Below, piece by piece: positions 4,565 to 60,286 of a stretch of 64,000 nucleotides of DNA. Source of the stretch: Minisyncoccota bacterium (GTDB lineage: Bacteria > Patescibacteriota > Minisyncoccia > UBA6257 > GWB1-50-10). Under the pieces are notes generated by a model. It was given only the letters and a program-made list of their open reading frames with translations. It had not been told where the DNA came from and made no database searches. Position 1 is the stretch's first letter, and each line of letters opens with the position of its first letter. The stretch spans positions 434,582 through 498,581 of the forward strand of contig JAYRXE010000037.1 in the NCBI GenBank assembly GCA_041917695.1, read 5' to 3'. The position numbers were made by a program, and so were the translations under genes.

Positions 4565-5092
4565 ATGAAAAGCCTGCCCATTTTGCGTCTCGCGCTCATA
4601 ACATTCGTATTGCTCCTTATCCCCTATTTCGGGAACCAATACCTTGAGGGGTGGAATTGGTCGCCCTCCGATTTCGTCTTCGCGGCAATCCTCACTCTCG
4701 GCGCCGGCGTCGCCTATGAGCTCTTTGCTAAAAGATCGGGCAATGCATCCTTCCGTGCCGGGGCGGCAGTCGCCCTCGGAGCATCGTTTCTGCTTATCTG
4801 GATAAACGGCGCCGTCGGCTTGATCGGAAGCGAGACGAATGAGGTGAATATGCTGTATGCCTTCGTGGTATTTATCGGCATCCTCGGCGCCGTCGCGGCG
4901 CGACCCAAAGCGCGCGGCATGTCCCGCGCTCTTTTCGTCATGGCGGTCGCGCAGTTTTTGGTGCCTATCGTAGCGCTTTTCGTAAATCCCAATGATTTCA
5001 GTCCCGGCCTCATGCGAGTTTTCGCGCTTAACTCCCTCTTTGTCGTCCTCTTCGCAGGCGCAGGCCTCCTTTTCAGAAACGCAGAGGCGTAG
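4565..5092 (+). CDS. Hypothetical integral membrane protein
   Basis: The 175-aa product has multiple hydrophobic helices; no recognisable family. Confidence 0.45.
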   Translation: MKSLPILRLALITFVLLLIPYFGNQYLEGWNWSPSDFVFAAILTLGAGVAYELFAKRSGNASFRAGAAVALGASFLLIWINGAVGLIGSETNEVNMLYAFVVFIGILGAVAARPKARGMSRALFVMAVAQFLVPIVALFVNPNDFSPGLMRVFALNSLFVVLFAGAGLLFRNAEA

Positions 5093-5134
5093 AAAACGGC
5101 CGCCTCAGAGAAGACGGCAAAGCCCTCTTTTTTA

Positions 5135-5620
5135 CTAATTCAACGCCCAAATGGCGTAATTGAGATACCCCGCAAAGCTGACCCACGCGATATACGGAAC
5201 CATGAGCCACGCCGCCGTACGCGAAAACTTCGCAAAGGAAAGAATGCAGGCGCCTATCGCAAGCCACAGAAGAATGATTTCAATGAATGCCCCGCCGGGC
5301 GAGCGGAGACCGAAAAAGAGGAACGACCACAGCGCATTCAAAAAAAGCTGGATGCCAAAAAGAATAAGCGGCGCGGAAACCCGCACGCCGGAATCTTTCC
5401 TTTTCCACACCAAAAAGGCGGCGATTCCCATGAGGGCGAAAAGGGCGGTCCACACCGGCCCGAAAACCCAATTCGGCGGAGCGAATTCCGGTCTTGCGAG
5501 TCCCGCATACCAACCGCCAATCGCCGGCGTCGTGAAAAGGGCGCCAATCCCGCCGACTGCCTGGGGAACAGCAAGGGCGAGAACCAGCTTCCATATATCT
5601 CTTCGGTTCATTGTTTTCAT
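5135..5620 (-). CDS. tspO: TspO/MBR family tryptophan-rich sensory protein
   Basis: Motifs PPNWVFGPVWTALFALMGIAAFLVW and LFGIQLFLNALWSFLFFG, together with five TM helices, are characteristic of TspO. Confidence 0.85.
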   Translation of the reverse strand: MKTMNRRDIWKLVLALAVPQAVGGIGALFTTPAIGGWYAGLARPEFAPPNWVFGPVWTALFALMGIAAFLVWKRKDSGVRVSAPLILFGIQLFLNALWSFLFFGLRSPGGAFIEIILLWLAIGACILSFAKFSRTAAWLMVPYIAWVSFAGYLNYAIWALN

Positions 5621-5638
5621 TTTAGAGCGTTACCGCGC

Positions 5639-5911
5639 TCAATATGCTTTGCGGTGAATACACCCCGCCCAGCAACATGGGCGGCGCATCCCGCCCTTCA
5701 GTTTTGAAAGGGCCTTTTCCATGCGAATCCCTCTCGTCTCTTCTTTTTTGCCGGATATTATCCAGCAAATCCACTCGTTTTTAGCGAGGGGCGTTATTTC
5801 GTTCCATACCACTTGGGCGCGCGGTGAAGCGCGGAGTGCCTTCCTAAAATCAGCCGGGAGCGTATGGGGCAATTTCTTATTCGGTCGTTTTGCCGTCGAA
5901 GTGTTCATCAT
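5639..5911 (-). CDS. YdeI/OmpD-associated family protein (DUF1801-like)
   Basis: The C-terminal motif ICWIISGKKEETRGIRMEKALSKL...CCWAGCIHR resembles the YdeI family. Confidence 0.55.
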   Translation of the reverse strand: MMNTSTAKRPNKKLPHTLPADFRKALRASPRAQVVWNEITPLAKNEWICWIISGKKEETRGIRMEKALSKLKGGMRRPCCWAGCIHRKAY

Positions 5912-7423: not shown

Positions 7424-7816
7424 TTATTTGAAATCCACGGTAAAGCTGTACATACCCATCCCGCATACCCCTCGTAAAATTCCCGACTGCGGAATGCCGA
7501 GATCTATCACTTCCTCGCCGTTTTGCGGAAGTATTTTCTGGTAGCCGATTGATCTAATGATGAGCGCTGCCGAACAATCGTATGTCCCGTTCGTTTTCAC
7601 GATGAGTTTGGTCGGTACGTTAGCTTTAGCTACCGAAGCCCGAGGCGAATATCCTCCGCGAGCCGCGATGGTGACGTATTGTACCCCGTTTCGCATTTCC
7701 ACATTCCGGGGCGGATTTGTCTCCTGCGATTCGCGTGGTTTCGCAGAATTGAAAAACATGATGCCGAGCGAGACGAAGACGGCAGCGGCGATAATGCTGA
7801 GAGCGATTTTATTCAT
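7424..7816 (-). CDS. Secreted or anchored cupredoxin-like (Cupredoxin_1-like) protein in the copper operon
   Basis: An N-terminal TM or signal segment is followed by a beta-rich domain ending GTYDCSAAL...GVCGMGMYSFTVDF. The Cys/Met-rich pattern resembles the C-terminus of Cupredoxin_1 proteins, but no His ligands are present. Confidence 0.4.
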   Translation of the reverse strand: MNKIALSIIAAAVFVSLGIMFFNSAKPRESQETNPPRNVEMRNGVQYVTIAARGGYSPRASVAKANVPTKLIVKTNGTYDCSAALIIRSIGYQKILPQNGEEVIDLGIPQSGILRGVCGMGMYSFTVDFK

Positions 7817-7819
7817 GGA

Positions 7820-8827
7820 TTACAGGTTCACGAGCGGACGGATGATCCCCAGTCCCGCCAAACCGGAAAGGAGTGCAAAAAGACCAAGGCCGATAACGAC
7901 CACGCCGACCGACGCAAAAAAGAGCGGCGCATGCTTTCCGCGCGCGAATGATGCCGAACCAAAGGAAAGAAATGCGAGCATGGGTAAGGTACCCAACGCG
8001 AAAGAAAGCATAATGAGAAGCCCTGCCATAAAAGAACCGCTGCTCACCGCCGAAATCTGCATTGATTGCGTAAAACCGCAGGGCAAAAAGAAGGTTGCAA
8101 CGCCCAACGCAAAAGGGGCAAGGGTTTTATGTTCAATCCGCCTCAAAAAGGCGAATGCCCCTGGGGGAAGCACTGCGGTGTTTTTCTTGATCGCACCGAC
8201 GAGATTCAACCCTAATAGTACCATGACAAGAGACGCGAGCAGGCCCAGTACGGCGGCGAGCGTAAAATTAATACCCAGGACGCCTCCCACAGCCCCTAAG
8301 ACGCCGCCTAAAAGTCCGAAACTCACGAGCCTTCCCGCATGGAATAGGGTTACAGTTTTTGTCTCACCGCCCGTTCCCTGCGATAGCTTGGCGGAAAGCG
8401 ACAAAACCAAGCCGCCGACGATGGCCAAACAGCTTGAAACCGAAGCAATAAGCCCAATAAGGAAGCTGGTAACTGGCGTCACTTGCCCGCCAAGGCCGAT
8501 ATTCAAAAGGCCTGATTTTTGAACCAAGAAAAAAAGAACTAAAAATCCGAGCCCGATCGGCAAAGCTTTCCAGAAAACTTCGTTCTTTGGGATATAATCC
8601 GCCTCCCGTTCGACGGATACCGCGTATCCATGGGACTCGATTTTCTTGGTCATCAGTTTTGCAAGCACCTCCGGGGACTGATCAATATGCGTCGCGAGTT
8701 CCAGGGTTTTTTTGCCGAGGTCCACATGCACATCGTGAGCAAAGTCCTGCTCCTTCAGCGTTTCCTCAATGAATATTTTGCACGCCGAGCAATGGGTCCC
8801 CGAAATATGGAAGTGATAGATTTTCAT
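7820..8827 (-). CDS. Heavy-metal-associated (HMA) domain fused to a DsbD_2/CcdA-like polytopic membrane domain
   Basis: The N-terminal HMA fold carries GTHCSACKIFIEETL (a CxxC metal site). The membrane domain carries conserved Cys residues (SVSSCLAIVGG and FFLPCGFTQSMQ). Confidence 0.7.
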   Translation of the reverse strand: MKIYHFHISGTHCSACKIFIEETLKEQDFAHDVHVDLGKKTLELATHIDQSPEVLAKLMTKKIESHGYAVSVEREADYIPKNEVFWKALPIGLGFLVLFFLVQKSGLLNIGLGGQVTPVTSFLIGLIASVSSCLAIVGGLVLSLSAKLSQGTGGETKTVTLFHAGRLVSFGLLGGVLGAVGGVLGINFTLAAVLGLLASLVMVLLGLNLVGAIKKNTAVLPPGAFAFLRRIEHKTLAPFALGVATFFLPCGFTQSMQISAVSSGSFMAGLLIMLSFALGTLPMLAFLSFGSASFARGKHAPLFFASVGVVVIGLGLFALLSGLAGLGIIRPLVNL

Positions 8828-14180: not shown

Positions 14181-14197
14181 TCCTTCTTCTTTCAGTT

Positions 14198-16957
14198 CTA
14201 TGAACACCCTCCCGAGGAATCGCCGCACCCAATGCAGGTAAGGCAGGTTCCCGTGCGGATCATCATGCCGCCGCACTTCTTGCATAACGTCTCGCTCGAT
14301 ACCTTGGCACTACCGGATGATTCAGTACGGGAAGATTCCTCCGTCCGGGCCGCAACTGCGACCGGCGACTTGATCTCTTTAGTCTCAACGAGCGGCTCGG
14401 CCGGGATGAATTGGTGCAAGCCCAACTCGACCAAATCCTCATTTGAAAGGAACCGGGACGCGAGATAGCGGAAAATGTAGTCCAGGATGCTCGTTGCAAT
14501 GCGGATGTTCGCGTTTTCCGTGAATCCGGACGGCTCAAAGCGCGTATAGATGAATTTCTCCACCAGGCGCTTCAACGGAACGCCGTATTGCAGAGCGACC
14601 GAAACGGAAATAGCGAACGCGTCGAGGAGACCAGACAGCGTGCTCCCCTGCTTCGACATCTTGATGAAGATCTCGCCCGGAGTGCCATCTTCGTACATGC
14701 CGTACGTAATGTAGCCGTCGTGCCCCGCAATGGCGAATTTGTGGGTCTCGGAAACGCGCGTCACTGGGAGGCGGTTGCGCGCCGGAACGGCGGCTTCGCG
14801 CGATGCGAGGTCCTTCGTGTCCTTTTTCTTCTGTGCCGCGGTATTCAAGGGCTGGGTTGCCTTCGAACCGTCGCGGTACACGGCAAACGCCTTGATGCCC
14901 AATTTCCAAGCCATCATGTATGCTTCCGCGATTTCCTCTTCGCTCGTTTCATGGGGCATGTTGAACGTCTTCGAGATGGCGCCCGAGATAAACGGCTGGA
15001 CGGCGGCAACCATTTTCACATGGCCTTTCCAGGAAATGGAGCGCGTGCCTTTCGCCGCGCGGACGGCACACTCGAATACCGGCAGATGCTCTTCCTTTAC
15101 GTACGGCGCGCCCTCGATGGTCCCCTGCTCCGAAATATGGGCAAGGATGGCGTCGCGCTCGTCCTTTCCGTAGGCAAGCTTCTCAAGCGCGGCGTCTACG
15201 GAGGCATTCACGATCTTCATCCACCCGCCGCCGACCAACTGCTTCATTTTTACCAGCGAGAAATCCGGTTCGATGCCGGTCGTATCGCAACCCATCATGA
15301 AGGAAATGGTGCCGGTGGGGGCAATGACGGTCGCCTGCGAATTCCTGAAGCCGTGCTCCTCGCCCAAGGCATATGCCTCGTCCCACACTTCCTGCATGGA
15401 CTTTGCGAGCGTGGCATCCTTCAAATGGAACGTATTCACCTGGCGGGACGCGTCGCGGTGCATGCCGATAACGTTCTGCATGGGTTCCTTGTTCACTTCA
15501 TACCCTTCGAACGGCCCTACCCGGCGCGCCAAAAGCGACGAATAGCGGTAGGCTTCGCCGGTCAAAAGAGACGCGATAGCACCGCCCCATGCATGCCCCT
15601 CTTCGGAATCGTAGGGAATTCCCTTCCGCATCAGGAGCGCCCCGAGGTTCGCAAATCCAAGGCCCAGCTCGCGGAAGGCATGCGCATTTGCCGCGATTTT
15701 CGGGGTCGGATAGCTGGAACCGTCAACGATGATGTCCTGGGCGAGGATGAAAACGTCCACCGTATGCTTGAACTCCTTCACCATGAAGGTTCCGTCCTCA
15801 CGCATGAATTTAAGCAGGTTTATTGAGGCTAAATTGCAGGCGGAATCGTCCAAATGCATGTATTCCGAGCACGGATTTGAAGCATTAATACGGCCCGAAT
15901 TGGGGCAGGTGTGCCATTTATTGATGATGGTATCGAACTGGACGCCCGGATCACCGCACTCCCAGGCCGCCTTTGCGATTTCCTTCAAAAGCTCGCGGGC
16001 GCCATACGCCGGCTCCGCGGCATTCGCACCGCCGTGCCGGTAGCTCGTCTTCCACTCTCCGTCCTTCGCGACCGCCTCCATAAAATCATCCGTGATGCGG
16101 ACGGAATTGTTCGCATTCTGAAACTGGATGGAATTCCACGCCTCGTCGTTCAAGTCGGCCATGTTATAGCCCGCATCCATCAATGCGCGCACTTTTTTCT
16201 CCTCTTTCGCCTTCGCCTGAACGAATTCAAGAATGTCCGGATGGTCGATGTTCAGGACGACCATCTTCGCCGCGCGGCGTGTCGTTCCGCCAGACTTGAT
16301 CATGCCCGCCACGGAATCCGCACCGCGCATGAATGAAACGGGACCGGAGGATTTTCCTCCCTGCGAAAGCGATTCGAGTTTCGAGCGCAACGGCGAAAGG
16401 TTGATACCGCTTCCGCTTCCGCCTTTGAAAATCGTTCCTTCGGTTTTAATCCATTCAAGAATCGAACCCATGCTGTCTTCAACGGAAAGAATGAAGCACG
16501 CGGAGCACTGCGGCTTTTCGCGCATGCCGACATTGAACCACACCGGCGAGTTGAACGAGCCTTTTTGATTCACGAGGATGTGCGTCAATTCGTGTTCAAA
16601 CACATTCGCCTGGTTGGCGTCCGCAAAATAACCGAAATCCTCTCCCCACTTTCGAATGTTTTTTACCACGCGGTCGATCATCTGTTTCACGCTCGTTTCG
16701 CGCTCCGGCGTGTTCAGTTTGCCGCGGAAATATTTCGCGGCGGTGATGTTTACCGCGTCTTGCGACCAAAATTCAGGAAACTCGGCGTCTTTTTGTTCAA
16801 AAACGCTGCCGCCGCCGACGGTTGCGTCGCGTTTCACCCATTCGATTTCGTCGTACGGATGCGTGCCTTCACGCGTAAACAGGCGTTTTAACGGAACGGG
16901 CGATCCCATTCTTTTTTTCTTCGAACCTTTTTGCTCAACAGCGCGAACCTGAGACAT
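14198..16957 (-). CDS. nrdJ: Adenosylcobalamin-dependent (class II) ribonucleoside-diphosphate reductase
   Basis: A 919-aa protein with strong similarity throughout to class II RNR. Examples: CSACFI and NLSPLRSK near the N-terminal third, SNPCSEYM at the active-site Cys loop, and a Cys-rich C-terminal tail (CKKCGGMMIRTGTCLTCIGCG). Confidence 0.9.
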   Translation of the reverse strand: MSQVRAVEQKGSKKKRMGSPVPLKRLFTREGTHPYDEIEWVKRDATVGGGSVFEQKDAEFPEFWSQDAVNITAAKYFRGKLNTPERETSVKQMIDRVVKNIRKWGEDFGYFADANQANVFEHELTHILVNQKGSFNSPVWFNVGMREKPQCSACFILSVEDSMGSILEWIKTEGTIFKGGSGSGINLSPLRSKLESLSQGGKSSGPVSFMRGADSVAGMIKSGGTTRRAAKMVVLNIDHPDILEFVQAKAKEEKKVRALMDAGYNMADLNDEAWNSIQFQNANNSVRITDDFMEAVAKDGEWKTSYRHGGANAAEPAYGARELLKEIAKAAWECGDPGVQFDTIINKWHTCPNSGRINASNPCSEYMHLDDSACNLASINLLKFMREDGTFMVKEFKHTVDVFILAQDIIVDGSSYPTPKIAANAHAFRELGLGFANLGALLMRKGIPYDSEEGHAWGGAIASLLTGEAYRYSSLLARRVGPFEGYEVNKEPMQNVIGMHRDASRQVNTFHLKDATLAKSMQEVWDEAYALGEEHGFRNSQATVIAPTGTISFMMGCDTTGIEPDFSLVKMKQLVGGGWMKIVNASVDAALEKLAYGKDERDAILAHISEQGTIEGAPYVKEEHLPVFECAVRAAKGTRSISWKGHVKMVAAVQPFISGAISKTFNMPHETSEEEIAEAYMMAWKLGIKAFAVYRDGSKATQPLNTAAQKKKDTKDLASREAAVPARNRLPVTRVSETHKFAIAGHDGYITYGMYEDGTPGEIFIKMSKQGSTLSGLLDAFAISVSVALQYGVPLKRLVEKFIYTRFEPSGFTENANIRIATSILDYIFRYLASRFLSNEDLVELGLHQFIPAEPLVETKEIKSPVAVAARTEESSRTESSGSAKVSSETLCKKCGGMMIRTGTCLTCIGCGDSSGGCS

Positions 16958-17349: not shown

Positions 17350-17458
17350 TTGTATGCCGGCGTAGCCTACTTTCCCGGAGCCGAAGCCCTAGTATCATCG
17401 GATACGTACGCTTTCACTTCTCTGTTCGGAATGGGAAGAGGTGGTGCACGTACCTATA
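17350..17458 (-). rRNA. rrf: 5S ribosomal RNA
   Basis: The minus strand reads ...CACCACCTCTTCCCATTCCGAACAGAGAAGTGAAAGCGTACG...GATGATACTAGGG...GGGAAAGTAGGCTACGCCGGCAT, which is 5S consensus. Ends are approximate. Confidence 0.85.
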
Positions 17459-17557
17459 AAACACCGGCAAACAAGAATATTCATGTCGTCCATTTTGAAA
17501 TCAGCTTTTTGAGATAGAAATACTACCGCATATTTTGCATATGCGATTAAAAAAGAA

Positions 17558-20650
<3,093 letters not shown>

Positions 20651-32210: not shown

Positions 32211-34034
32211 TTATTCTACCGTGACGGACTTCGCAAGATTGCGGGGCTTATCCACGTTGTTCCCGCGTTCGACGCCGACATAGTAGGCAAAAAGCTGGAG
32301 CGGTATCACGGCAAGCAACGGCTCGAGCGGTTCGAGGGTTTTCGGGATAAAAAATACGTCGTCGGCGAGCGCTTCCGCCTGCGCATCCCCTTCGGTGGCG
32401 ATAACGAGCACGGGTCCTTTGCGCGCGCGGATCTCTTCGATATTGCCGTACATTTTCTCAACGATATCGTTTTGGGGCATGAGGGCGATGGTCGGGAAGT
32501 CCGGACTGATCATTGCAATCGGACCGTGCTTCATTTCGCCGCCCCCGTACCCTTCCGCATGTATGTAGGAAATCTCCTTGAGCTTCAAAGCGCCCTCCAT
32601 CGCAATGGGATAGCTGTAGCGCCTTCCGAGGAAAAGGAAGTCGCGATACCCGGCGTATTTTTTCGCCAATGCTTCTATCGTGTCCGCTTTTTCAAGAATC
32701 CCGCCGATTTTCTCCGGAATCGTTTCCAACTCCTTCATGAGAGCCATCATCTCCTCCGCGCTTTTCCCGGAAATGTAGAGGGCGATAAGAAGCAAAATCG
32801 CGTATTGCGAAACGAATGCTTTGGTAGAGGCGACGCCGATTTCCGGTCCCGCGTGATTGTAGACCCCTGCATCCGTTTCGCGCGCGATCGAGGAACCGAC
32901 GGCGTTCACGAGACCCAATGTCAAAAGCCCTTCTTCTTTCGCTTTCTTCACCGCCGCAAGCGTGTCGGCGGTTTCGCCGGACTGGGAAATGGCAAGCGCC
33001 ACCGTCCCTTCCTCGAACGGCTCAGTCCGATAGCGGAAGTCCGATGCGGTGTGGACTTCGGTCGGAATTCCTGCAAGCTCCTCGAAGACGTACTCGCCGA
33101 GGAGCCCCGCGTAATAGGATGTCCCGCAGGCGAGGATAACGAGCCGCTTGGTCTTCTTGAGTTTCTCTTTGATGCGTTCCAATCCTCCCAGGCGTACGCT
33201 TCCTTTTTTCGCATCGAGCCTCCCGCGGAACGCCGAGCGGATGATTTCCGGCTCCTCGAATATCTCTTTCAGCATGAAATGCGCGAAGTTTCCTTTTTGC
33301 GCCTGCTCAAGCGTCCATTCGAGTTCGATAACTTCGTGCGGCACTTCGTGCCGGTCGCGGTCGGTGACGGTCATCCCGTCGGGCCTGATCTCGGCGACCT
33401 CGCCGTCGTTCAAATAGACTATCTCCTTCGTCTTGCCGACCAGGGCCGACGGGTCGGAGGCGATAAAATGCTCCCCGTCGCCGATGCCGATAACGAGCGG
33501 ACTCCCCAGGCGCGCGGCGTAAAGCGTGCCGTCATCTTTCGCATCCAAAACCGCAAGCGCGTAAGCTCCGCGTATCATCGAAAGCATGTCGAAAAAGGCG
33601 GAGGCGAAGTCCCGCCCCTGGTTTAAAAAATCCTCAATGAGGTGCGCCACGACCTCCGTGTCGGTTTCGGAAACGAACGTATGCCCGCGCTTTTTCAAGT
33701 AATCGCGGAGTTCCTTATAGTTTTCAATGATGCCGTTGTGCACGACGACGACCTGTTCGGTGCAATCAACGTGCGGATGCGCGTTTGCCTCGTTCGGTTC
33801 GCCGTGCGTTGCCCAGCGCGTGTGCCCTACGCCGACACGGCCCGTAGGACCACTTTTCTTCAGGCGGTCTTCGAGCACGGCAACCTGTCCCACCGTCCGT
33901 TCGCGGAAGACCTTTCCGCTCGAAATAAGCGCCACGCCCGCTGAATCGTATCCGCGGTATTCAAGCGCCAAAAGCCCGTTAATGAGTATCGGCAGGGCTT
34001 CTTTTTTTCCGGTGTATGCAACGATTCCGCACAT
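32211..34034 (-). CDS. glmS: Glutamine--fructose-6-phosphate aminotransferase (isomerizing)
   Basis: The N-terminal MCGIVAY nucleophile, a glutaminase domain, and two SIS domains ending in ...KSVTVE. Confidence 0.95.
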   Translation of the reverse strand: MCGIVAYTGKKEALPILINGLLALEYRGYDSAGVALISSGKVFRERTVGQVAVLEDRLKKSGPTGRVGVGHTRWATHGEPNEANAHPHVDCTEQVVVVHNGIIENYKELRDYLKKRGHTFVSETDTEVVAHLIEDFLNQGRDFASAFFDMLSMIRGAYALAVLDAKDDGTLYAARLGSPLVIGIGDGEHFIASDPSALVGKTKEIVYLNDGEVAEIRPDGMTVTDRDRHEVPHEVIELEWTLEQAQKGNFAHFMLKEIFEEPEIIRSAFRGRLDAKKGSVRLGGLERIKEKLKKTKRLVILACGTSYYAGLLGEYVFEELAGIPTEVHTASDFRYRTEPFEEGTVALAISQSGETADTLAAVKKAKEEGLLTLGLVNAVGSSIARETDAGVYNHAGPEIGVASTKAFVSQYAILLLIALYISGKSAEEMMALMKELETIPEKIGGILEKADTIEALAKKYAGYRDFLFLGRRYSYPIAMEGALKLKEISYIHAEGYGGGEMKHGPIAMISPDFPTIALMPQNDIVEKMYGNIEEIRARKGPVLVIATEGDAQAEALADDVFFIPKTLEPLEPLLAVIPLQLFAYYVGVERGNNVDKPRNLAKSVTVE

Positions 34035-34103
34035 GTTTTTTGAGTTCCTTTATTCTACCAAAAGGACGGACCCATCCTCTCTTAACGGCGTGCCCCTCCA
34101 TCT

Positions 34104-34137
34104 GGGACAAGTTGAGGTTTTAGGCAATTCGCGTAAA
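34104..34137 (+). promoter_or_regulatory. Candidate promoter for the ftsB-like gene and tRNA-Gly
   Basis: TTGAGG, then 16 nt, then TAAAAT, ending immediately before the ATG. Confidence 0.3.
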
Positions 34138-34437
34138 ATGTGGCTTATGGAACGCGCTCGCCTTATCGCACTTGCCGTCGTCGCTGTGATCCTCGGCATT
34201 ATGGCGTGGTCCCTGCGGGGCGAGCGCAAGGCCATCGAAACATCCGTTCGAGAGCTCCGCGAAAAACAGCAACGGGTCGACGAGGAAAACCGCCAATTAG
34301 CGGAACGGATAGAATATTTCAAGATTCCTGAAAACCTGCTCAAGGAATCGCGCGCGCAATTCAATTACGTATTGCCGGGCGAGAAGCTCATTATCCTCGT
34401 TCCCGAGGCCACATCATCAGCTCATTCGGAACAATAA
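34138..34437 (+). CDS. Septum formation initiator family protein (FtsB/DivIC-like)
   Basis: About 100 aa: an N-terminal TM helix (LIALAVVAVILGIMAW), a coiled coil (RELREKQQRVDEENRQLAERIEYFK), and a C-terminal NYVLPGEKLIILVPE typical of FtsB/DivIC. Confidence 0.6.
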   Translation: MWLMERARLIALAVVAVILGIMAWSLRGERKAIETSVRELREKQQRVDEENRQLAERIEYFKIPENLLKESRAQFNYVLPGEKLIILVPEATSSAHSEQ

Positions 34438-34438
34438 T

Positions 34439-34509
34439 GCGGGATTCGTTCAGTGGTAGGACGCGACCTTCCCAAGGTTGAGATACGGGTTCGATTCCCG
34501 TATCCCGCA
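34439..34509 (+). tRNA. tRNA-Gly (anticodon CCC)
   Basis: GCGGGAT-TC-GTTC-AGTGGTA-GGAC-G-CGACC-TTCCCAA-GGTTG-AGAT-ACGGG-TTCGATT-CCCGT-ATCCCGC-A. No CCA. Confidence 0.85.
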
Positions 34510-34674
34510 CATAAACATGAACCCACGAAAGATCGTGGGTTCATGCTTCCTACGGGAATCGAACGCGTATGGGGTCGGGAGCGGCGCAACGCTCCCGTGG
34601 AGGAGACGCTTAAGAACCGAGAGGTTCTTAAGGAGCGAAGCGACTTGAGATTTTCCCATATCCCGCACATAAAA
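34510..34674 (+). repeat. tRNA-associated structured repeat element, copy 1 (downstream of tRNA-Gly)
   Basis: Hairpin atgaacccacg-aaagat-cgtgggttcat. Core gggaatcgaacgcgtatggggtcgggagcggcgcaacgctcccgtggaggagacgcttaagaaccgagaggttcttaagg. It ends in a degenerate copy of the tRNA-Gly 3' end (gattttcccatatcccgcacataaaa versus the tRNA's gattcccgtatcccgcacataaa). Homologous copies sit at 43381-43596 and 60046-60214. Confidence 0.7.
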
Positions 34675-34701
34675 CTAAAACCTCCGCATACGCGGAGGTT
34701 T
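34675..34701. terminator. Bidirectional terminator (fusA on the minus strand; the tRNA-Gly unit on the plus strand)
   Basis: cctccgcatacgcggagg forms a hairpin. A T-run follows on the minus strand and tttta on the plus strand. Confidence 0.6.
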
Positions 34702-34712
34702 TAGCTAGATAA

Positions 34713-36827
34713 TTACTTCTGTTTGCCTTCGATAATGGTCTGCGCGATATTGTTCGGCGTCTCTGCGTAGTGGCTGAACTCCATGGTGAAGGACGCCCGG
34801 CCCTGCGTCATCGAGCGGAGCTTCGTCACGTATCCGAACATTTCGGAAAGCGGAACCTCGGCATCCACGACGCGCACCGAACCGCGCTCGCCCATCTCCG
34901 TGATCTTCGCGCGCTTCGAGGAAAGGTCGCCCGTCACATCGCCCAGGAAATCGGGCGGAACCGTCACCTGCACTTTCATGATCGGTTCAAGGATGACGAG
35001 CTTCGCCTGCTTCGTCGCTTCCTGGAGCGCCATTGCGCCCGCGATCTGGAAGGCGATTTCAGACGAGTCGACTTCGTGGTAGGAACCGTCGTAGAGCGTC
35101 ACCTTCAAATCGGTAAGCGGGAAACCGGCGAGCACGCCTTTCGAAACCGCATCCTTCAAGCCTTTTTCGACGGCCGGAACGAATTCCTGCGGAATAACGC
35201 CGCCTTTGATGGCGTTCACAAACTCATAGCCCGTACCGCGCTCCATCGGCTCAACTTCAAGGCGCACGTGGCCGTACTGTCCGCGTCCGCCGGACTGGCG
35301 GATATATTTGCCTTCCGCTTTCGCCGTGCCTTTGATGGTTTCCTTGTAGGCAACCTGCGGGCGGCCGACGTTCGCTTCAACGGAGAATTCACGCTTCATG
35401 CGGTCGACAAGCACTTCGAGGTGGAGTTCGCCCATGCCGGCAATAAGCGTCTCGCCCGTTTCGGCATCACCGCTCACCTTAAAGGTCGGGTCTTCATCCG
35501 CGAGGCGGCGAAGCGCCAAACCCATCTTTTCCTGGTCGGCTTTGGATTTCGGCTCAATACGGATGGAGATAACGGGTTCGGGGAAGGTGATCTTTTCAAG
35601 GACGATTGGGTTTTCCGGGTCGGAAAGCGAATCGCCGGTACCCGTGCTCTTCAAGCCTACGATCGCGCCCAAGTCGCCGGCGTAGATCTCATCCACTTCT
35701 TCGCGGTGATTTGCATGCATGCGGACGATACGGCCGATGCGCTCCTGCGTGTTTTTCGTGCTATTTAAGATGTAGCTCCCCTTCTTCAAGGTTCCCGAAT
35801 ACACGCGGAAAAAGGTCAGCGAGCCGACAAACGGGTCGGAGGCGATCTTAAAAGCAAGCGCCGCAAGCGGAACGTTATCCTTGGGGAGGCATTCAACTTC
35901 CTTCCCGTCCGGGGTCGTTCCCTTTTTCGGCGGGATATCGAGCGGAGACGGCAAATAGTCGATGACGGCATCAAGCATGAGCTGGACACCCTTGTTCTTT
36001 AAGGCACTTCCGCAGAAGACCGGCACCAGGCGGTTCACGAGGGTCGCCTTGCGAAGCGCAGCCTTGAGGGCGGGTACGTCAATCTCCTCACCGGCAAGAT
36101 ATTTTTCGAGCAAGGCATCGTCCGTCTCGGCGATTTTCTCGACAAGCGCATGGCGGCGTTTTTCCGCTTCCGCCTTCATGTCTTCCGGAATGTCCTTGTG
36201 GATGATTTTCTCTCCCCGGTCCCCTTCGAAGGTCACCGCTTTCATTTCCATGAGATCCACGACTCCCTCGAAGTTCGATTCCTCGCCGATGGCCATGTGG
36301 AGCGCGACGGCGTTCTTCGTAAGCCGGTCGACGATGGAAGCGAAGCTCCGGTCGAAGCTCGCGCCCATGCGGTCCAGCTTGTTGATGAAACAAATGCGGG
36401 GAACGTTGTAATCGTCCGCATAGTGCCAGTTCGTTTCCGACTGGGGCTCCACGCCAGCAACGCCGTCAAAGACAACGACGGCACCGTCCAGAACGCGCAA
36501 CGAGCGCTTCACTTCGACGGTGAAGTCGATGTGTCCCGGAGTATCGATGATGTTCATCCGGTATTCGTGCGCCTTCGACTTCGGATCGGTCTTGTCGAAT
36601 TTCGTCGGAATCCAGAAACACGTGGTCGCGGCGGCGGTGATGGTGATACCGCGTTCGCGTTCCTGCTCCATCCAGTCCATGGTCGCCTCGCCTTCGTGCA
36701 CCTCGCCTATCTTGTGGGAAATGCCGGTATAGAAAAGTACGCGCTCGGAAACCGTCGTCTTGCCGGCGTCGATGTGCGCAATGATGCCAATGTCCCGAAC
36801 CCGCTCAAGAGGATATTGCCTGGGCAT
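34713..36827 (-). CDS. fusA: Translation elongation factor G
   Basis: The G-domain motifs are [18 protein letters not shown] and NKLD. The protein is 704 aa full length. Confidence 0.97.
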
Positions 36828-42380: not shown

Positions 42381-42410
42381 AGCCCACGAATGGGCTTAGA
42401 TGACAACGCA
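42381..42410 (-). terminator. Rho-independent terminator after the AT-rich ORF, immediately upstream of truncated prfB
   Basis: aagcccattcgtgggctt forms a hairpin, followed on the minus strand by ttttttatttttt. Confidence 0.55.
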
Positions 42411-42827
42411 CGCAAAATTGCCGAAAGCGCTTGGCATCAGAAGAATCCACAATGATGAATCCAGTTTATCTGCATGAGTGGCTAGGCAAAAATTTTTGAT
42501 ATCTTCCAGGACTGCATTCTTCCTTTCCTCAAGATTTATTTTTCTCTCGGGATAATCATGCGCGAGAACCAGGATTTCAATCACCTGGGAATGTACGTCC
42601 ATTTTTTTATGTTGCCGAGGCTTTACCTTGATATCTTCGGGCTTGAGGAAGCCTTCCTTTCCTTCTTCCGTTGAGACGGAAAGATGCTTGGAAAGCGTTA
42701 CGGGAAGAAAGCGTGCGAGTTCCTCTGCATCTCCCTTTGCTGATTCCTCGTAGAACATGAATACGTACGGCATTCGAACTCCTTTTTTAAATTTGAAATA
42801 CTGGCTATGTTTTATAGTAAATTCCAC
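42396..42827 (-). CDS. Hypothetical protein (AT-rich island)
   Basis: A 143-aa ORF with low-GC codon usage and its own terminator. No recognisable family, and no similarity to RF2 domain 1. Confidence 0.45.
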   Translation of the reverse strand: MEFTIKHSQYFKFKKGVRMPYVFMFYEESAKGDAEELARFLPVTLSKHLSVSTEEGKEGFLKPEDIKVKPRQHKKMDVHSQVIEILVLAHDYPERKINLEERKNAVLEDIKNFCLATHADKLDSSLWILLMPSAFGNFACVVI

Positions 42828-42862
42828 CAGGAGTCAATTATCCCTAAAAAGAAGAGCCGCAA

Positions 42863-43279
42863 CTATGCGGCTTTCAAAGTATATATCCTTACCTGCTTCA
42901 AATCCCACCAACGACCCTGCCCATTATCAAAAAGAATGCGAGGATCTTTGATCCCTAAATACCTCTCTAATTCCTCAAAGAACGCGGGAGATGAAATGAA
43001 GATGGATGAACTATTCTTATCAGAAAAAAGAGGGCTATCCGCATCTATCTTACCATCCCTGATTACATTAGGGTTCTCAAGCCATAAACCTAATCGATAG
43101 GAAAAAGAGCGCTCTTCTTTCTGGAAAGTAAAATAGAGTTCATCGACCTCGGGAAGAAGGACGGGAATCACTGTCTTAAACATGGACTGACTCATGCCTC
43201 CCCCTCCTCGAATAGAGGATAAAAAAACAGGACAATTATTGATGAGATAAATCACCGCTTCCTTGTGCGAAGTTATCAT
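42863..43279 (-). CDS. Hypothetical protein (AT-rich island)
   Basis: A 138-aa ORF with low-GC codon usage and its own terminator (agccgcaactatgcggct plus a minus-strand T-run at about 42851-42885). Confidence 0.45.
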   Translation of the reverse strand: MITSHKEAVIYLINNCPVFLSSIRGGGGMSQSMFKTVIPVLLPEVDELYFTFQKEERSFSYRLGLWLENPNVIRDGKIDADSPLFSDKNSSSIFISSPAFFEELERYLGIKDPRILFDNGQGRWWDLKQVRIYTLKAA

Positions 43280-43380
43280 TATGCTTCTCCAATAAGTTAT
43301 TAAATTTACTGGATATAAAATAAAATATTTATTAACTTATGTCAAAGTAATTATTCTCTACAATCGAACAATCCGCCGAA

Positions 43381-43596
43381 TGCGCCACTTCGGAATCTCA
43401 TGTCGCTTAAAATACCACTTCAGGAATCTCACAAAATTCCGTATCCACGGAATTTTTTTGAACCCCTCGGTTCCAATTATTCGCTTCGCGAATCCTACGT
43501 CTTGGAAAAACAAGTGTTTTTCCACCGCCTTTTCCCTTCGATTCCGAAATGCTACAGATGTAAAAATACCGTCATAAGACGGTATTTTTACATCTG
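43381..43596 (-). repeat. tRNA-associated structured repeat element, copy 2 (downstream of tRNA-Thr; diverged)
   Basis: A 17-bp perfect hairpin gatgtaaaaataccgtc-ataa-gacggtatttttacatc abuts the tRNA 3' end. It shares blocks with copy 1 (cggaatcgaag, cgaagcga, aaccgaggggttc). It ends in two degenerate copies of the tRNA-Thr 3' end (ccacttcaggaatctca and gccacttcggaatctcatgtcgc). Confidence 0.6.
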
Positions 43597-43669
43597 AGCC
43601 ACTTCCCGGAATCGAACCGGGGACCTTTGCTTTACGAAAGCACTGCTCTACCAGCTGAGCTAAAGTGGC
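43597..43669 (-). tRNA. tRNA-Thr (anticodon CGU)
   Basis: The minus strand reads GCCACTT-TA-GCTC-AGCTGGTA-GAGC-A-GTGCT-TTCGTAA-AGCAA-AGGTC-CCCGG-TTCGATT-CCGGG-AAGTGGC-T. Confidence 0.85.
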
Positions 43670-57539: not shown

Positions 57540-57587
57540 GCTTAATAGCGGGGGCGGGATAAAAGAAAACCGCCGGGAAATGGCGGT
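57540..57587 (-). terminator. Tandem rho-independent terminators
   Basis: Two hairpins, ccccccgcttaatagcgggggcggg and aaaccgccgggaaatggcggttt, each with a minus-strand T-run. Confidence 0.5.
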
Positions 57588-58004
57588 TTATTTGGTGAAA
57601 AAATTTTTCAATGCGGTAGCGATCGCTTCGCAGGCTCCGGGTTTCACAATACGGTCGAATGAAATGACCATAACGATCGCTTCATAGCGGGTAGTGAGAA
57701 ACACGCATCCTTCTTCGTTCGCTTTCCGCTCGTGGAACTCCGAATAACTCGGAATGTCCATTGTGGAAAAAACATGCGGAGATACGTCCGAGCAGATAAT
57801 CACCACCTTTCTCGTGATATGAGGCGGGTTCGGTTCTTTCGCAAAATCATGAAAAGAAACCGTACTGTTTTGGAATGGCTCCGGCAAATTTCCGCCCGCA
57901 CAGAATTCTGCGAACTTTTCATTGAAAAGCTCGTGGTAGGCGGTGGCGACGCTTCCCTTCCCCGACTCTTCCACAAGGAGGATGGGGATGCTGTTTTCTG
58001 CCAT
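57588..58004 (-). CDS. Hypothetical protein
   Basis: 138 aa, with its own terminator and no recognisable family. Confidence 0.4.
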   Translation of the reverse strand: MAENSIPILLVEESGKGSVATAYHELFNEKFAEFCAGGNLPEPFQNSTVSFHDFAKEPNPPHITRKVVIICSDVSPHVFSTMDIPSYSEFHERKANEEGCVFLTTRYEAIVMVISFDRIVKPGACEAIATALKNFFTK

Positions 58005-58108
58005 ATAAAACGCTCCTTTCTGTTTGCGCTACGTGTTAAGCTGGCTGAACTCATGGAACTCCTTTCGGTTTTTGCTGTCAAATAAAAAGCCGCCAGCGGC
58101 GGCTTTGG

Positions 58109-58558
58109 TCATGGAGCGGATACGTGCCCCACGCAATACTCCCGATGCATGGCATCCACGCCCTTCAGAAAAAGAGCATACTCTTCCTCGTCCATGCTCG
58201 TATTCGGACACACCACGAACGGAACGACCCGCTCCAGGTGAAGGATGAGGAAGTTGCCCGTGGACGGATGGGGCGCTACCGACCAGTCATTCGTCTCCTG
58301 CCGTTTGAGATATTCAAGATATTCGCGGTTTCCCACCAATATCCGCGCCTTGCTTCTGAAAAAAAACTCGAATTGCTCCGCAAGGGGCTTGTCTTCGTTC
58401 GAATGGATGATGATATCCGGCCGAGGACGGAACCCGTTCCGCAAACGGGGAACAAAAAAATATTCAATGAACTCCTGGCTTTTTCGTATGTCATTCCGGC
58501 TGTCGGAGCCGTTCACCGGAAAATAAAAAAAGGCAAAGATGTTTATTTCGTTTTCCAT
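58109..58558 (-). CDS. Hypothetical protein
   Basis: 149 aa, with its own terminator (aaagccgccagcggcggcttt at about 58083-58105) and no recognisable family. Confidence 0.4.
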   Translation of the reverse strand: MENEINIFAFFYFPVNGSDSRNDIRKSQEFIEYFFVPRLRNGFRPRPDIIIHSNEDKPLAEQFEFFFRSKARILVGNREYLEYLKRQETNDWSVAPHPSTGNFLILHLERVVPFVVCPNTSMDEEEYALFLKGVDAMHREYCVGHVSAP

Positions 58559-58633
58559 GGCGCCTCCGCGCTTAAATTTTTAAAAAAAATGTTTCTGGAA
58601 AAATTTAACCCCCGATAAACGGGGGTGTCAACT

Positions 58634-58984
58634 TTAGGCAGCTGCGAAAAGCTCTGGCTGTGAAACCTTTTCAAAAAAGGCCATGCATTCATGGAAGTTA
58701 TGCTCTTCCTCAGCCTCGGTGACAGGGATTTCCTTATAATCCTTATCCTCTTTGGCATAGGTATTGAGCACTATCCAAGCTCTCTGCCTGCACTGCTTTT
58801 CAATACTTCGGGGAGGTTCTACATATACATGCGAACCGTAATTTTTGTATCCGATGCGTGTCATTTTCTTCCCATCTTCGCTGACAAGAAAAGTGAACTC
58901 CATAGCCTCGTACGTGACTACGACGGTGCGATGGTTATCGCTTACGGACTCAACATGAATCGGATCAGGAATTTTTGGTTCCAT
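58634..58984 (-). CDS. Hypothetical protein
   Basis: 116 aa, with its own terminator (acccccgataaacgggggt at about 58606-58630) and no recognisable family. Confidence 0.4.
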   Translation of the reverse strand: MEPKIPDPIHVESVSDNHRTVVVTYEAMEFTFLVSEDGKKMTRIGYKNYGSHVYVEPPRSIEKQCRQRAWIVLNTYAKEDKDYKEIPVTEAEEEHNFHECMAFFEKVSQPELFAAA

Positions 58985-59146
58985 GATTATCTCCTTTTGA
59001 TTAATTAATATTTACTGTTTTTATTATACCATACGAAGCATATAAAAGTCAATAATTCCAAAGTTTTGTCAAGGTGTCCTACCCAGCTCTGACGCAACGG
59101 AAGAGTATAATGGGTGCAAAGGTCGAGAAAAGCTATTTTTAAAAAA

Positions 59147-59476
59147 ATGAAGAAACTTTTCGTGGTTTTGAGCGTAATGGCAATGATGTTCAGCCTCTCT
59201 TCGGTCGCCCTCGCAGGCGGCGGAAGCTCGCAGGTCTCCTACACGTACTACGATACGCAGGCGGACTATGCGAACGGCGTTGGCACGGCAGTCACCTGCA
59301 ACCCGACGAGCCCCTCCGGCGACTACATCACCTGCTTCATTGACGATGAGGATCGCGCCTGGGGCATTGTGGTCGATACCGACCGCGCCTGGGGCATTGT
59401 CGTCGACGATCGCGCCTGGGGCATTGTCGTTGATACCGATGGCAAATCCTTCGGCATTGTCGTTGATACCGACTAA
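59147..59476 (+). CDS. Secreted small protein with four tandem DRAWGIVVDTD-like repeats
   Basis: Signal peptide MKKLFVVLSVMAMMFSLSSVALA. A Cys-containing segment (TCNPTSPSGDYITCF) precedes DRAWGIVVDTD, RAWGIVVDD, RAWGIVVDTD and GKSFGIVVDTD. A strong terminator follows (aaaaaactccttcgggagtttttt at about 59489-59520). Confidence 0.55.
   Translation: MKKLFVVLSVMAMMFSLSSVALAGGGSSQVSYTYYDTQADYANGVGTAVTCNPTSPSGDYITCFIDDEDRAWGIVVDTDRAWGIVVDDRAWGIVVDTDGKSFGIVVDTD
59351..59473 (+). repeat. Tandem in-frame DNA repeats (about 27-33 bp, four units) within the secreted peptide gene
   Basis: cgcgcctggggcattgt(g/c)gt(c/t)ga... occurs three times, followed by a diverged fourth unit ggcaaatccttcggcattgtcgttgataccgac. 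Confidence 0.7.
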
Positions 59477-59639
59477 TTCCGTTTTTTCGGAAAACAAAAA
59501 ACTCCTTCGGGAGTTTTTTGTTTTGAGCGCCATCGTGGAGCCCACCGGCCGGCAGATAGGGATGTTAGAATCGGATTGTGGCTTGGGGGTAATAAAAAAG
59601 AGGGGTCTTAATCCCTCTTTCTGACTCAATGCTTAAAAC

Positions 59640-60008
59640 CTAATGATTCATAACGTACCAACTTTTGTACGCACGTAAATTTTTCTTTGAGAGTTCTTTT
59701 TCGGGGTAAGGACCTACTATTTTTGATGGCATAAGATTCATTTGGGATCTCTGTTGATCTCTAAATAATAGCTCAGGATCTGAATCGGACTGAGCTAATA
59801 CAATTACATTATTTATATTTGTAGCCCCTAAGCACTTATGCTTTTTTGCTTGATTGATTAATGCAGTGATATATTCTCGTATATCTTGTGATATCGTAGA
59901 TTTAAACAACTCCTCAAAAAATTTAAATTTAATTTTTTTCATTTCACTTTTTAAAATTATTAAAAAAATATCTGCAAGCAAAATACTACAAATCATAGCT
60001 TCTGTCAA
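59640..60008 (-). CDS. Hypothetical protein (AT-rich)
   Basis: A 122-aa ORF whose sequence is markedly AT-rich. It lies between the secreted repeat peptide and the tRNA-Glu-associated repeat. Confidence 0.4.
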   Translation of the reverse strand: MTEAMICSILLADIFLIILKSEMKKIKFKFFEELFKSTISQDIREYITALINQAKKHKCLGATNINNVIVLAQSDSDPELLFRDQQRSQMNLMPSKIVGPYPEKELSKKNLRAYKSWYVMNH

Positions 60009-60045
60009 TATTTTGAGAAACGGGACTAGTCGAAAACATTTTCGA

Positions 60046-60214
60046 ATTTAGCCCACGGGAAATCTCACGTCGTCACTCCGCTCCTCCTTAAGAACCCACG
60101 GTTCTTAAAAGATTTCCTCCACGGGAGCGTTGCGCCGCTCCCGACCCCATACGCTTCGATTCCCTGAGCACCCACACTAAAACAACTCCTTGAAAGGAGT
60201 TGTTTTAGTGTAAG
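60046..60214 (-). repeat. tRNA-associated structured repeat element, copy 3 (downstream of tRNA-Glu)
   Basis: The reverse complement of 60086-60164 is gggaatcgaagcgtatggggtcgggagcggcgcaacgctcccgtggaggaaatcttttaagaaccgtgggttcttaagg. This is nearly identical to copy 1 and includes a perfect 38-nt run. The element ends in a degenerate copy of the tRNA-Glu 3' end (agcccacgggaaatctcacgtcg). Adjacent to the tRNA is a 15-bp-stem hairpin aaaacaactcc-ttgaaa-ggagttgtttt. Confidence 0.7.
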
Positions 60215-60286
60215 TAGCCCCACGGGGAATCGAACCCCGATTTTTGCCGTGAGAGGGCAATGTCCTAGCCGTTAGACGATGAGGCC
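60215..60286 (-). tRNA. tRNA-Glu (anticodon CUC)
   Basis: The minus strand reads GGCCTCA-TC-GTCT-AACGGCTA-GGAC-A-TTGCC-CTCTCAC-GGCAA-AAAT-CGGGG-TTCGATT-CCCCG-TGGGGCT-A. The acceptor stem has two G-U pairs. The overall sequence is close to canonical tRNA-Glu. Confidence 0.8.

Follow-up and report, generated by a model that had tools for sequence, protein, structure and literature searches.

Integrase attachment (att) systems insert at the 3' ends of genes, with tRNA and transfer-messenger RNA (tmRNA) genes as favored targets, supply their own copy of the gene end, leave a flanking direct repeat and can stand in tandem arrays. We found the same traits in a small repeat located behind tRNA genes in a stretch of 64,000 nucleotides (nt) from a Minisyncoccota bacterium (GenBank assembly GCA_041917695.1, contig JAYRXE010000037.1, positions 434,582 to 498,581 of the forward strand), referred to here in its full length as the window. 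However, att systems, including integrase-less derivatives that are mobilized in cis, measure kilobases, rely on a sequence-specific integrase with one fixed target and have no antisense box, whereas the repeat encodes no protein, places one core at many unrelated targets and carries an antisense box complementary to its target. Read in the orientation of the host gene, the copies behind the tRNA genes for Gly, Glu and Thr consist of a hairpin, the antisense box (T'), a core (S), a short, purine-rich 3' module with GCGAC at its end and a distal copy of the gene end (T2). The stretch near the gene end that is matched by T' is called X, and the proximal counterpart of T2 is called T.

Other described systems share different features with this element. 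Class C group II introns pair an internal guide with their target, insert just past terminator hairpins and do so in sense orientation. However, group II introns have at least ~600 nt, six domains, usually a reverse transcriptase, guides of 3-13 nt in fixed loops and no target duplication, and the group II intron models of Rfam (domain V hairpin) did not match the element at gathering or relaxed thresholds. IS200/IS605 elements and PATEs are likewise small and strand-specific, with hairpins and a short guide beside the hairpin, and their guide RNAs consist of a scaffold followed by flank-derived sequence. IS605 uses a 4-nt guide and a fixed tetra- or pentanucleotide target without duplicating it, whereas the element duplicates 17-83 nt at variable targets; no TnpA, TnpB or IscB was seen among the genes annotated in the window or beside the copies, nor did the Rfam models of their RNAs match.

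The bridge (seek) RNA of IS110/IS1111 is a structured RNA of 150-250 nt whose programmable segments read both strands and whose target differs from copy to copy. It lies, however, inside an element that encodes a recombinase (DEDD/serine), its target and donor loops surround a core dinucleotide, and it duplicates no 3' end; we found neither sequence nor model similarity to it, and no recurrent family of open reading frames (ORFs) adjoins our copies. CRISPR-associated transposons carry homing guides (against tRNA genes in type V-K, against genes such as ffs, guaC, yciA and rsmJ in type I-F3) that are sense copies of gene ends, and they come to rest directly downstream with the gene undisrupted, yet these transposons exceed 10 kb, encode Cas and Tns proteins, have Tn7-type ends, keep the spacer in a CRISPR repeat and lack an antisense box. 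Finally, in the attP hairpins of CTX-phi and the attC sites of integrons, inverted segments fold into a target-mimicking stem with central unpaired or bulged bases, much as T' does with the start of T2. That stem mimics one fixed site (dif or attI partners) for XerCD or IntI, whereas in our element the stem sequence follows the target and the 'loop' is the conserved part.

Database searches agreed with these comparisons. Rfam, run at gathering thresholds over the whole window and at relaxed thresholds over six element-bearing stretches, returned only tRNA, rRNA and tmRNA matches and sub-threshold hairpin noise, and the self-cleaving ribozyme models (hammerhead, twister, twister-sister, pistol, hatchet, HDV-like and hairpin) did not match these six stretches at E values up to 5-10. 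Pattern scans of viral contigs yielded nothing similar, blastn of the long form of the element against phage and plasmid collections gave chance matches of 26-31 nt only, and we found no description of the family in the full-text literature, PMC13011429 included. A first-pass annotation of the window, made from the sequence alone, had not recognized the repeat as a described element, and these searches bear it out. The element falls outside every known kind compared, each of which shares one or two features with it and fails a tested defining one. Our leading interpretation, which we hold tentatively and just short of calling it probable, is a non-autonomous integrative element, guided by base pairing and horizontally mobile, that replaces or duplicates the 3' ends of genes.

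Results

A structured repeat follows three tRNA genes of the window

ARAGORN identified six tRNA genes in the window (Gly, Thr, Glu, Asn, Lys and Pro), and the repeat lies behind the first three only. The first-pass annotation had reported the same oriented repeat 3' of these three genes, each copy with a duplicated tRNA 3' end, and both observations hold: the series of modules is present at all three loci, and when inverted and direct matches to the tRNA end were tested against shuffles, those at the Gly, Glu and Thr loci beat all or nearly all of them. Neither type of match was significant when the same test was applied to the Asn, Lys and Pro genes. The T2 of the Gly copy equals its tRNA at 20 of 21 positions over TTCCC(G/A)TATCCCGCACATAAA (21 nt). 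A perfect run common to the Gly and Glu copies had also been noted and is present, with a length of 40 nt instead of 38 (34565-34604 = 60115-60154); the exact 20-mer of the first core hairpin (hp1), GGGAGCGGCGCAACGCTCCC, occurs twice in the window against 0.01 occurrences expected by chance.

Conservation at all three tRNA genes stood only in part. The Gly and Glu cores match our covariance model strongly (68 and 71 bits), whereas the Thr core is marginal (14 bits, E 0.16), and the Thr copy looks like a distant, diverged and composite relative. Two motifs that had been proposed as fixed turned out not to be. The 'reverse-complemented T-arm box' gggaatcgaac varies with the tRNA and, behind protein genes, gives way to the complement of the coding end, and the terminal '..tgagatt' is a diverged T-loop portion of T2, not a motif of the family.

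The element belongs to a family found in Patescibacteria

Following a suggestion in the first-pass annotation to look for copies elsewhere, a degenerate core pattern was searched in 185,579 reference genomes and in metagenomes. One genome matched, a metagenome-assembled genome of Candidatus Yanofskybacteria, and 25 matches came from metagenomes, ~20 of which are true members. Two further copies stand in tandem in a relative of the window organism (locus L031). Covariance-model scores across the copies range from 39 to 88 bits, and the protein-less elements measure about 110-220 nt. Wherever protein names or homologues exist, the hosts are Patescibacteria: relatives of the window's EF-G bear the names Jorgensen-, Brenner- or Parcubacteria, and the hosts of L003 and L011 are Staskawiczbacteria-like.

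The repeat had been described behind tRNA genes, but the family is not specific to them. Besides at least eight different tRNA genes, the same unit follows tmRNA genes (L002, L004 and L007; Rfam 69-116 bits) and at least seven protein genes, namely rpsI (L001, on a contig that stops short of the distal end), uvrA (L003), a histidine kinase gene (L005), pgk (L008), fusA (L011), an L33-like gene (L015) and a short-chain dehydrogenase gene (L023). More than 12 unrelated targets, coding ends included, thus bear the unit, and at every copy its orientation is that of the gene. The family is real and statistically solid, and the repeat of the window belongs to a widespread, apparently undescribed family of tiny structured elements in Patescibacteria.

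Four pattern matches (L009, L010, L018 and L024) were rejected as chance matches, and L022, in which the element stands at either end, is a palindromic misassembly. At 7737-7900 (+) of L020 lies a divergent subfamily member that keeps the logic of the family and differs in the middle; its order is a perfect X/T' hairpin, AAGGGGTC, an hp1-like hairpin, another long helix that replaces GTGGAGGAA and the second core hairpin (hp2), and ..GTAGCGAC. Several contigs end in the element or a few bases from it (L001, L008 at 14185-14254, L011 at 10-94, L043 and L046), as expected for a dispersed repeat in short-read assemblies. The contig of L013 has, in addition to its element-bearing tRNA gene, a group I intron match at 1560-1799 (49.3 bits against an Rfam gathering threshold of 50).

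The core is a conserved structure with two covarying hairpins

A covariance model of the hairpins, another suggestion of the first-pass annotation, revealed compensatory changes. In the alignment of 23 copies fitted to the model, 97.4% of the cells form standard pairs, compared with 82.3% in shuffles, and 10 of the 14 modelled pairs (in hp1 and hp2) have changes on both sides. Covariation scored 0.451, compared with 0.175 for shuffles, of which none among 500 reached the observed value; sliding the registers by 1-3 columns lowers the score to at most 0.138. The core is thus a conserved structure with two covarying hairpins. Between the helices, the strands ..ATGGGGTC.. and ..GTGGAGGAA.. hardly vary from copy to copy, and optional hairpins may stand on either side of hp2, toward the core and toward the GCGAC end. 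A small ORF starting from the ATG of ATGGGGTC was ruled out, since hairpin length varies and the frame is not kept.

T' has two possible partners, X and, with a poorer fit, the start of T2. Pairing with the start of T2 appears in most minimum-free-energy folds and closes the core as a three-way junction. In these predicted folds the closing helix is interrupted in the middle in every case, by a bulge or an internal loop: the tmRNA copies have two single-base bulges there, several tRNA copies have 2-4 extra bases, and L016 and L019 have an insertion of 10-21 nt. G-U pairs fill 2 of 307 cells in the modelled stems, which are almost purely Watson-Crick, and the only evidence on strand is the fixed orientation relative to the host gene. 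The heptamer GCGAAGC, also as GCGCAGC or GTGAAGC, recurs in the 3' or middle modules of many copies, for example at 34635-34641 and 43482-43488. The DNA heptamer d(GCGAAGC) forms a mini-hairpin of unusual stability, which leaves room for a single-stranded-DNA reading of the structure.

An antisense box and a second gene end follow the target

In every copy, T' lies directly 5' of the core and reads as the reverse complement of X, a stretch of 9-21 nt close to the end of the gene upstream. The complementarity of T' to X was significant against shuffles in all 22 copies tested, and so was the T/T2 repeat in all 21 copies with the distal end on the contig; in the rpsI copy, where the contig stops before the distal end, only T' could be scored. 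Both relations hold at tRNA and tmRNA genes and at uvrA, the kinase gene, pgk, fusA, the L33-like gene and the dehydrogenase gene, which suggests that the target is set by complementarity and not by tRNA identity. In the uvrA copy, X and T' form a perfect 19-nt palindrome without spacer.

T starts between -5 and +7 nt relative to X, and T2 runs to the end of the gene, be it the stop codon, the CCA of tmRNA, a point 3-7 nt beyond a tRNA or the distal side of a terminator. The target duplication is 17-83 nt long. T' pairs over 9-21 nt at a distance of 0-60 nt from the junction. Many copies sit behind a terminator hairpin, and the element starts 0-25 nt past the T-run of the host terminator or past the stop codon. 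The proximal hairpins are unrelated between copies that have near-identical cores.

In 20 of 21 elements T' is closer to the proximal X than to the distal copy; over 287 nt, 23 edits separate it from the former and 73 from the latter. At fusA, where T and T2 are 31% diverged, T' differs by 1 edit from the proximal copy and by 4 from T2. In the tandem of L031, the T' of the second element fits the stretch just upstream, which is the tRNA-end copy of the first element, better than the tRNA itself. Together, the antisense box, the covarying core and the second copy of the gene end suggest an anatomy in which the target would be recognized by base pairing.

Evidence for mobile copies and for a gene end from another lineage

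One hp1 variant occurs at tRNA-Gly and tRNA-Glu of the window and at rpsI of L001, and a second variant at uvrA, the kinase gene, pgk, fusA and the dehydrogenase gene. A relative (L028) has DivIC and tRNA-Gly without the element, and the fusA copy of L011 is absent in four Staskawiczbacteria relatives. An identical tRNA-Gly(CCC) in L031 has two members in tandem behind it (5191-5640), and a separate terminator-like hairpin follows each of them. Presence and absence among relatives, tandem insertion and the occurrence of one core at many targets point to mobility. Orthologous pairs (L016/L019 and L002/L007) have accumulated compensatory hairpin changes, which indicates that copies can be old residents too.

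At coding ends, T and T2 differ at 25 of 81 nt in fusA with 24 of 26 residues the same, and at 9 of 36 nt in the L33-like gene with 11 of 12 residues the same. In the kinase gene 5 of 54 nt differ, all of them synonymously, and T2 has an in-frame insertion of 6 nt just beyond. Because the differences are almost only synonymous, as between two functional alleles, one copy came from another lineage, and a simple target-site duplication with later decay is excluded. Simple snap-back copying at a terminator was rejected since T' skips 7-13 nt of the acceptor strand, as was a role of T2 as a spliced 3' exon in the window, since the Gly, Glu and Thr T2 would yield defective tRNA stems. The last 22 residues of EF-G in Staskawiczbacteria (P0121-P0199) occur as two haplotypes plus apparent recombinants, QFDRYEPVP.NIAQEI..GKRK and EFN.YE.VP.NVAQQI..GK[VT]K, distributed patchily among proteins that are 85-90% identical overall. 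This pattern may be a footprint of gene-tail exchange by such elements.

Features and neighborhood of the window copies

The positions of all modules are listed in Table 1.

Table 1. Positions of host tRNA genes, element modules and the adjoining terminator in the window.
Feature	Position	Strand	Remarks
tRNA-Gly(CCC), host gene	34439-34510	+	ARAGORN; Rfam 64.4 bits; X at 34489-34502 (T-arm)
Gly proximal hairpin	34516-34545	+	locus-specific; no T-run on the + strand; outer arms like those of the hairpin at the same place in the relative L031
Gly T', TACGGGAATCGAAC	34551-34564	+	reverse complement of 34489-34502, 14/14; score reached by no shuffle
Gly core S	34565-34644	+	covariance-model match 67.6 bits, E 3e-15; hp1 and hp2 covary
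Gly linker and ATGGGGTC, within S	34569-34576 (ATGGGGTC)	+	
Gly hp1, GGGAGCGGCGCAACGCTCCC	34577-34596	+	same 20-mer in the Glu copy
Gly strand between hp1 and hp2, GTGGAGGA..	34597-34608	+	
Gly hp2, CTTAAGAACC..GGTTCTTAAG	34609-34632	+	
Gly 3' module, GAGCGAAGCGAC	34633-34644	+	
Gly T2, TTGAGATTTTCCCATATCCCGCACATAAAA	34645-34674	+	degenerate tRNA copy, from the T-loop to 6-7 nt beyond the 3' end
Bidirectional terminator after Gly T2	34675-34704	.	similar hairpin at the same position after fusA in relatives
tRNA-Thr(CGU), host gene	43596-43669	-	ARAGORN, Rfam; X at 43607-43616
Thr proximal hairpin	43557-43594	-	terminator-like; locus-specific
Thr copy, whole	43381-43549	-	module order by eye; T' and T2 significant against shuffles
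Thr T'	43534-43549	-	complementary to the T-arm of tRNA-Thr; followed by GGCGGT
Thr hp1-like hairpin	43504-43523	-	
Thr GCGAAGC hairpin	43479-43493	-	
Thr hp2-like hairpin	43460-43474	-	
Thr extra hairpin	43433-43456	-	
Thr inner tRNA-end copy	43413-43432	-	
Thr ..AAGCGAC	43402-43412	-	
Thr outer tRNA-end copy, T2	43381-43401	-	
tRNA-Glu(CUC), host gene	60214-60286	-	ARAGORN, Rfam; X at 60225-60234
Glu proximal hairpin	60174-60211	-	terminator-like (A-run, stem, T-run); locus-specific
Glu copy, whole	60046-60165	-	covariance model 71 bits, E 4e-16; T' and T2 significant against shuffles
Glu T'	60153-60165	-	complementary to the T-arm of tRNA-Glu
Glu ATGGGGTC	60143-60150	-	
Glu hp1, GGGAGCGGCGCAACGCTCCC	60123-60142	-	
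Glu hp2, CTTAAGAACC..GGTTCTTAAG	60087-60109	-	
Glu 3' module	60069-60086	-	
Glu T2	60046-60068	-	degenerate tRNA-end copy

The terminator that follows the Gly T2 is probably that of fusA itself (fusA ends at 34713 on the minus strand) and, judged by its position in relatives, would be native flank outside the element. In this part of the window (33727-36827), the segment of DivIC, tRNA-Gly and the element is inverted compared with the relatives L027, L028 and L031, where fusA, DivIC and tRNA-Gly stand in this order on one strand. As a result of this inversion T2 abuts the fusA terminator, and one breakpoint coincides with the end of the element. In L027, whose EF-G is 91% identical, an insertion with a GIY-YIG-like ORF splits tRNA-Gly(CCC) close behind its 5' end (4985-5289), and ARAGORN found no tRNA there.

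Directly downstream of the Thr and Glu elements are two low-GC stretches, 42400-43380 and 57560-60030, with a GC content of 0.37-0.50 compared with ~0.55-0.59 around them. They hold two and five minus-strand ORFs without a Pfam match, are bounded by prfB-like and tpiA genes, and each opens with a promoter-like TTGACA-17-TATTTT just past T2. We found no further tRNA-end copy bounding these stretches, which may be small islets that came in at these same hot spots. Pfam searches on the neighbors of L004 and L007 and on these islets of the window found no integrase, reverse transcriptase or transposase, and the genes next to copies are housekeeping genes or have no database match, with housekeeping genes also making up the annotated parts of the window.

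Besides the tRNAs, Rfam identified only 23S and 5S rRNA in the window. The 23S match (17354-20643, with the 5S gene adjacent) spans 3091 nt for a model of 2925 positions, and the gene probably contains an insertion. Rfam found no 16S rRNA within the 64-kb window.

Discussion

Among the interpretations offered in the first-pass annotation, a miniature non-autonomous integrative element mobilized in trans fits the data best. For its organization we prefer, as a possibility that we would not yet call probable, a mobile unit X-R-hairpin-T'-S that is joined at the 5' edge of the native X, over the alternative layout, in which the unit would be T'-S-T2-terminator. T' would act as an internal guide and pair with the X of an unoccupied gene, in single-stranded DNA or RNA; this pairing would bring the 3' end of S to the 5' edge of X, where joining would take place, and the closing helix between T' and the start of T2 would be its record. 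The element-borne copy of the last 20-80 nt of the gene, often with a terminator, would keep the gene intact, and the native end would be displaced downstream, become T2 and then decay. The catalyst could be an enzyme encoded elsewhere or the core itself. Three observations favor this layout: T' is allied with the proximal copy, most clearly at fusA; the second T' of L031 matches the stretch just upstream; and the hairpin after the Gly T2 is apparently the native terminator of fusA.

Several points weigh against this interpretation. L004 and L007 are at least 90% identical from T' through T2 and over 70 further non-coding nt, whereas their tmRNA genes are only ~62% identical. Such a shared block is what a T'-S-T2-terminator unit would leave on insertion behind an intact gene, unless T2 adjoins a second mobile element; the preferred layout has to explain the 70 nt in this second way, as the terminus of such an element at the former tmRNA end. 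The combination of unrelated proximal hairpins with near-identical cores would require wholesale replacement of the gene end with each change of target. Both layouts also need a way to acquire a fresh T' and a fresh gene-end copy with each move of the core to another gene. All-vs-all blastp of the ORFs around the copies revealed no recurrent protein family and no candidate enzyme. The near-pure Watson-Crick stems do not distinguish RNA from single-stranded DNA. A comparison with empty sites, also proposed in the first-pass annotation, showed relatives free of the element, but among those compared none was near enough in sequence to fix the boundaries. The relatives reached through EF-G were too diverged or rearranged to define an empty site, all same-species assemblies have the Gly copy, and all uvrA-identical contigs have the element. 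Lastly, comparison of the fusA T and T2 with relatives (77% DNA identity) identified no clear native copy.

A rather unlikely alternative that would accommodate some of these points is that the unit T'-S-T2, with or without its own terminator or cargo, lands downstream of an intact gene, with T' and T2 as guide or homology modules that it carries along, in the manner of a homing guide. The block shared by L004 and L007 would then be the element itself with 70 nt of non-coding sequence, next to tmRNA genes and proximal terminators that have diverged. Unrelated proximal hairpins are expected if these are native, the element does start 0-25 nt past the host terminator or stop codon, and low-GC islets with unmatched genes lie 3' of T2 at the Glu and Thr loci. 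However, such an insertion does not account for the better fit of T' to the host's proximal copy than to its own T2 in 20 of 21 elements, including 1 against 4 edits at fusA, nor for a Gly T2 that adjoins an apparently native fusA terminator, and it too requires T' to be reprogrammed. The textbook signature of gene 3'-end duplication at tRNA and tmRNA genes, together with the islets beside the Glu and Thr copies, could also suggest attL/attR scars, or one arm left over from an island of a tyrosine or serine integrase that has lost its cargo, as the first-pass annotation had considered. This is very improbable: a discrete unit with a constant order of modules recurs in ~20 loci and at more than 12 unrelated targets, coding ends included, no integrase lies beside any copy examined and no protein family recurs, the islets are not bounded by a third tRNA-end copy, and an att arm would not hold a box that changes to the complement of each target.

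The remaining interpretation, in which the repeat is a 3' trailer co-transcribed with the gene and kept by the host, is compatible with the finding of no promoter between gene and element and with an orientation that is always that of the gene. Such a cis-acting RNA might serve processing, termination or insulation, stability, or sequestration of read-through transcripts by pairing of T' with X, and mobility would explain only where the copies came from. Functional tRNA 3' trailers are known, for example the leuZ 3' external transcribed spacer (3'ETS), which is a small-RNA sponge in E. coli. Orthologous copies (L016/L019 and L002/L007) have persisted with compensatory hairpin changes, and the complementarity of T' to X is near-perfect in spite of its being non-coding. 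On the other hand, only three of the six tRNA genes of the window have the element, close relatives lack it at the same gene, the host genes are functionally unrelated, T2 has no obvious role and decays, and the presence of a foreign gene-end copy is left unaccounted for. We consider a purely cis-acting role distinctly unlikely. A cis function of the co-transcribed RNA may nevertheless explain why copies of a base-pair-guided integrative element are retained over long periods.

A more speculative and, in our view, improbable form of the guided-integration interpretation is that the three-way-junction core of ~70 nt is a new catalytic RNA, or the scaffold of a new RNA- or single-stranded-DNA-guided recombinase encoded elsewhere. 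With T' as its programmable internal guide, it would insert and excise itself at the 5' edge of any sequence that T' complements, together with a self-healing gene end. If so, it would be the smallest known guide-directed mobile element, with a target that could be rewritten through ~15 nt.

Whatever its mechanism, the element breaks short-read assemblies, makes pseudo-tRNA ends and marks integration hot spots. If the base-pair-guided interpretation is true, Patescibacteria would harbor a mobile element of ~100 nt whose target is selected by base pairing and whose spare 3' end lets the invaded gene go on functioning. The combination of no protein, a conserved structured core and both antisense and sense copies of the target is not known from any described element. 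It would point to a new guide-directed integration activity, enzyme or ribozyme, of interest to genome engineering, and it would account for the exchange of essential gene tails (tRNA, tmRNA, EF-G and ribosomal proteins) between lineages whose genomes have very few classical mobile elements.

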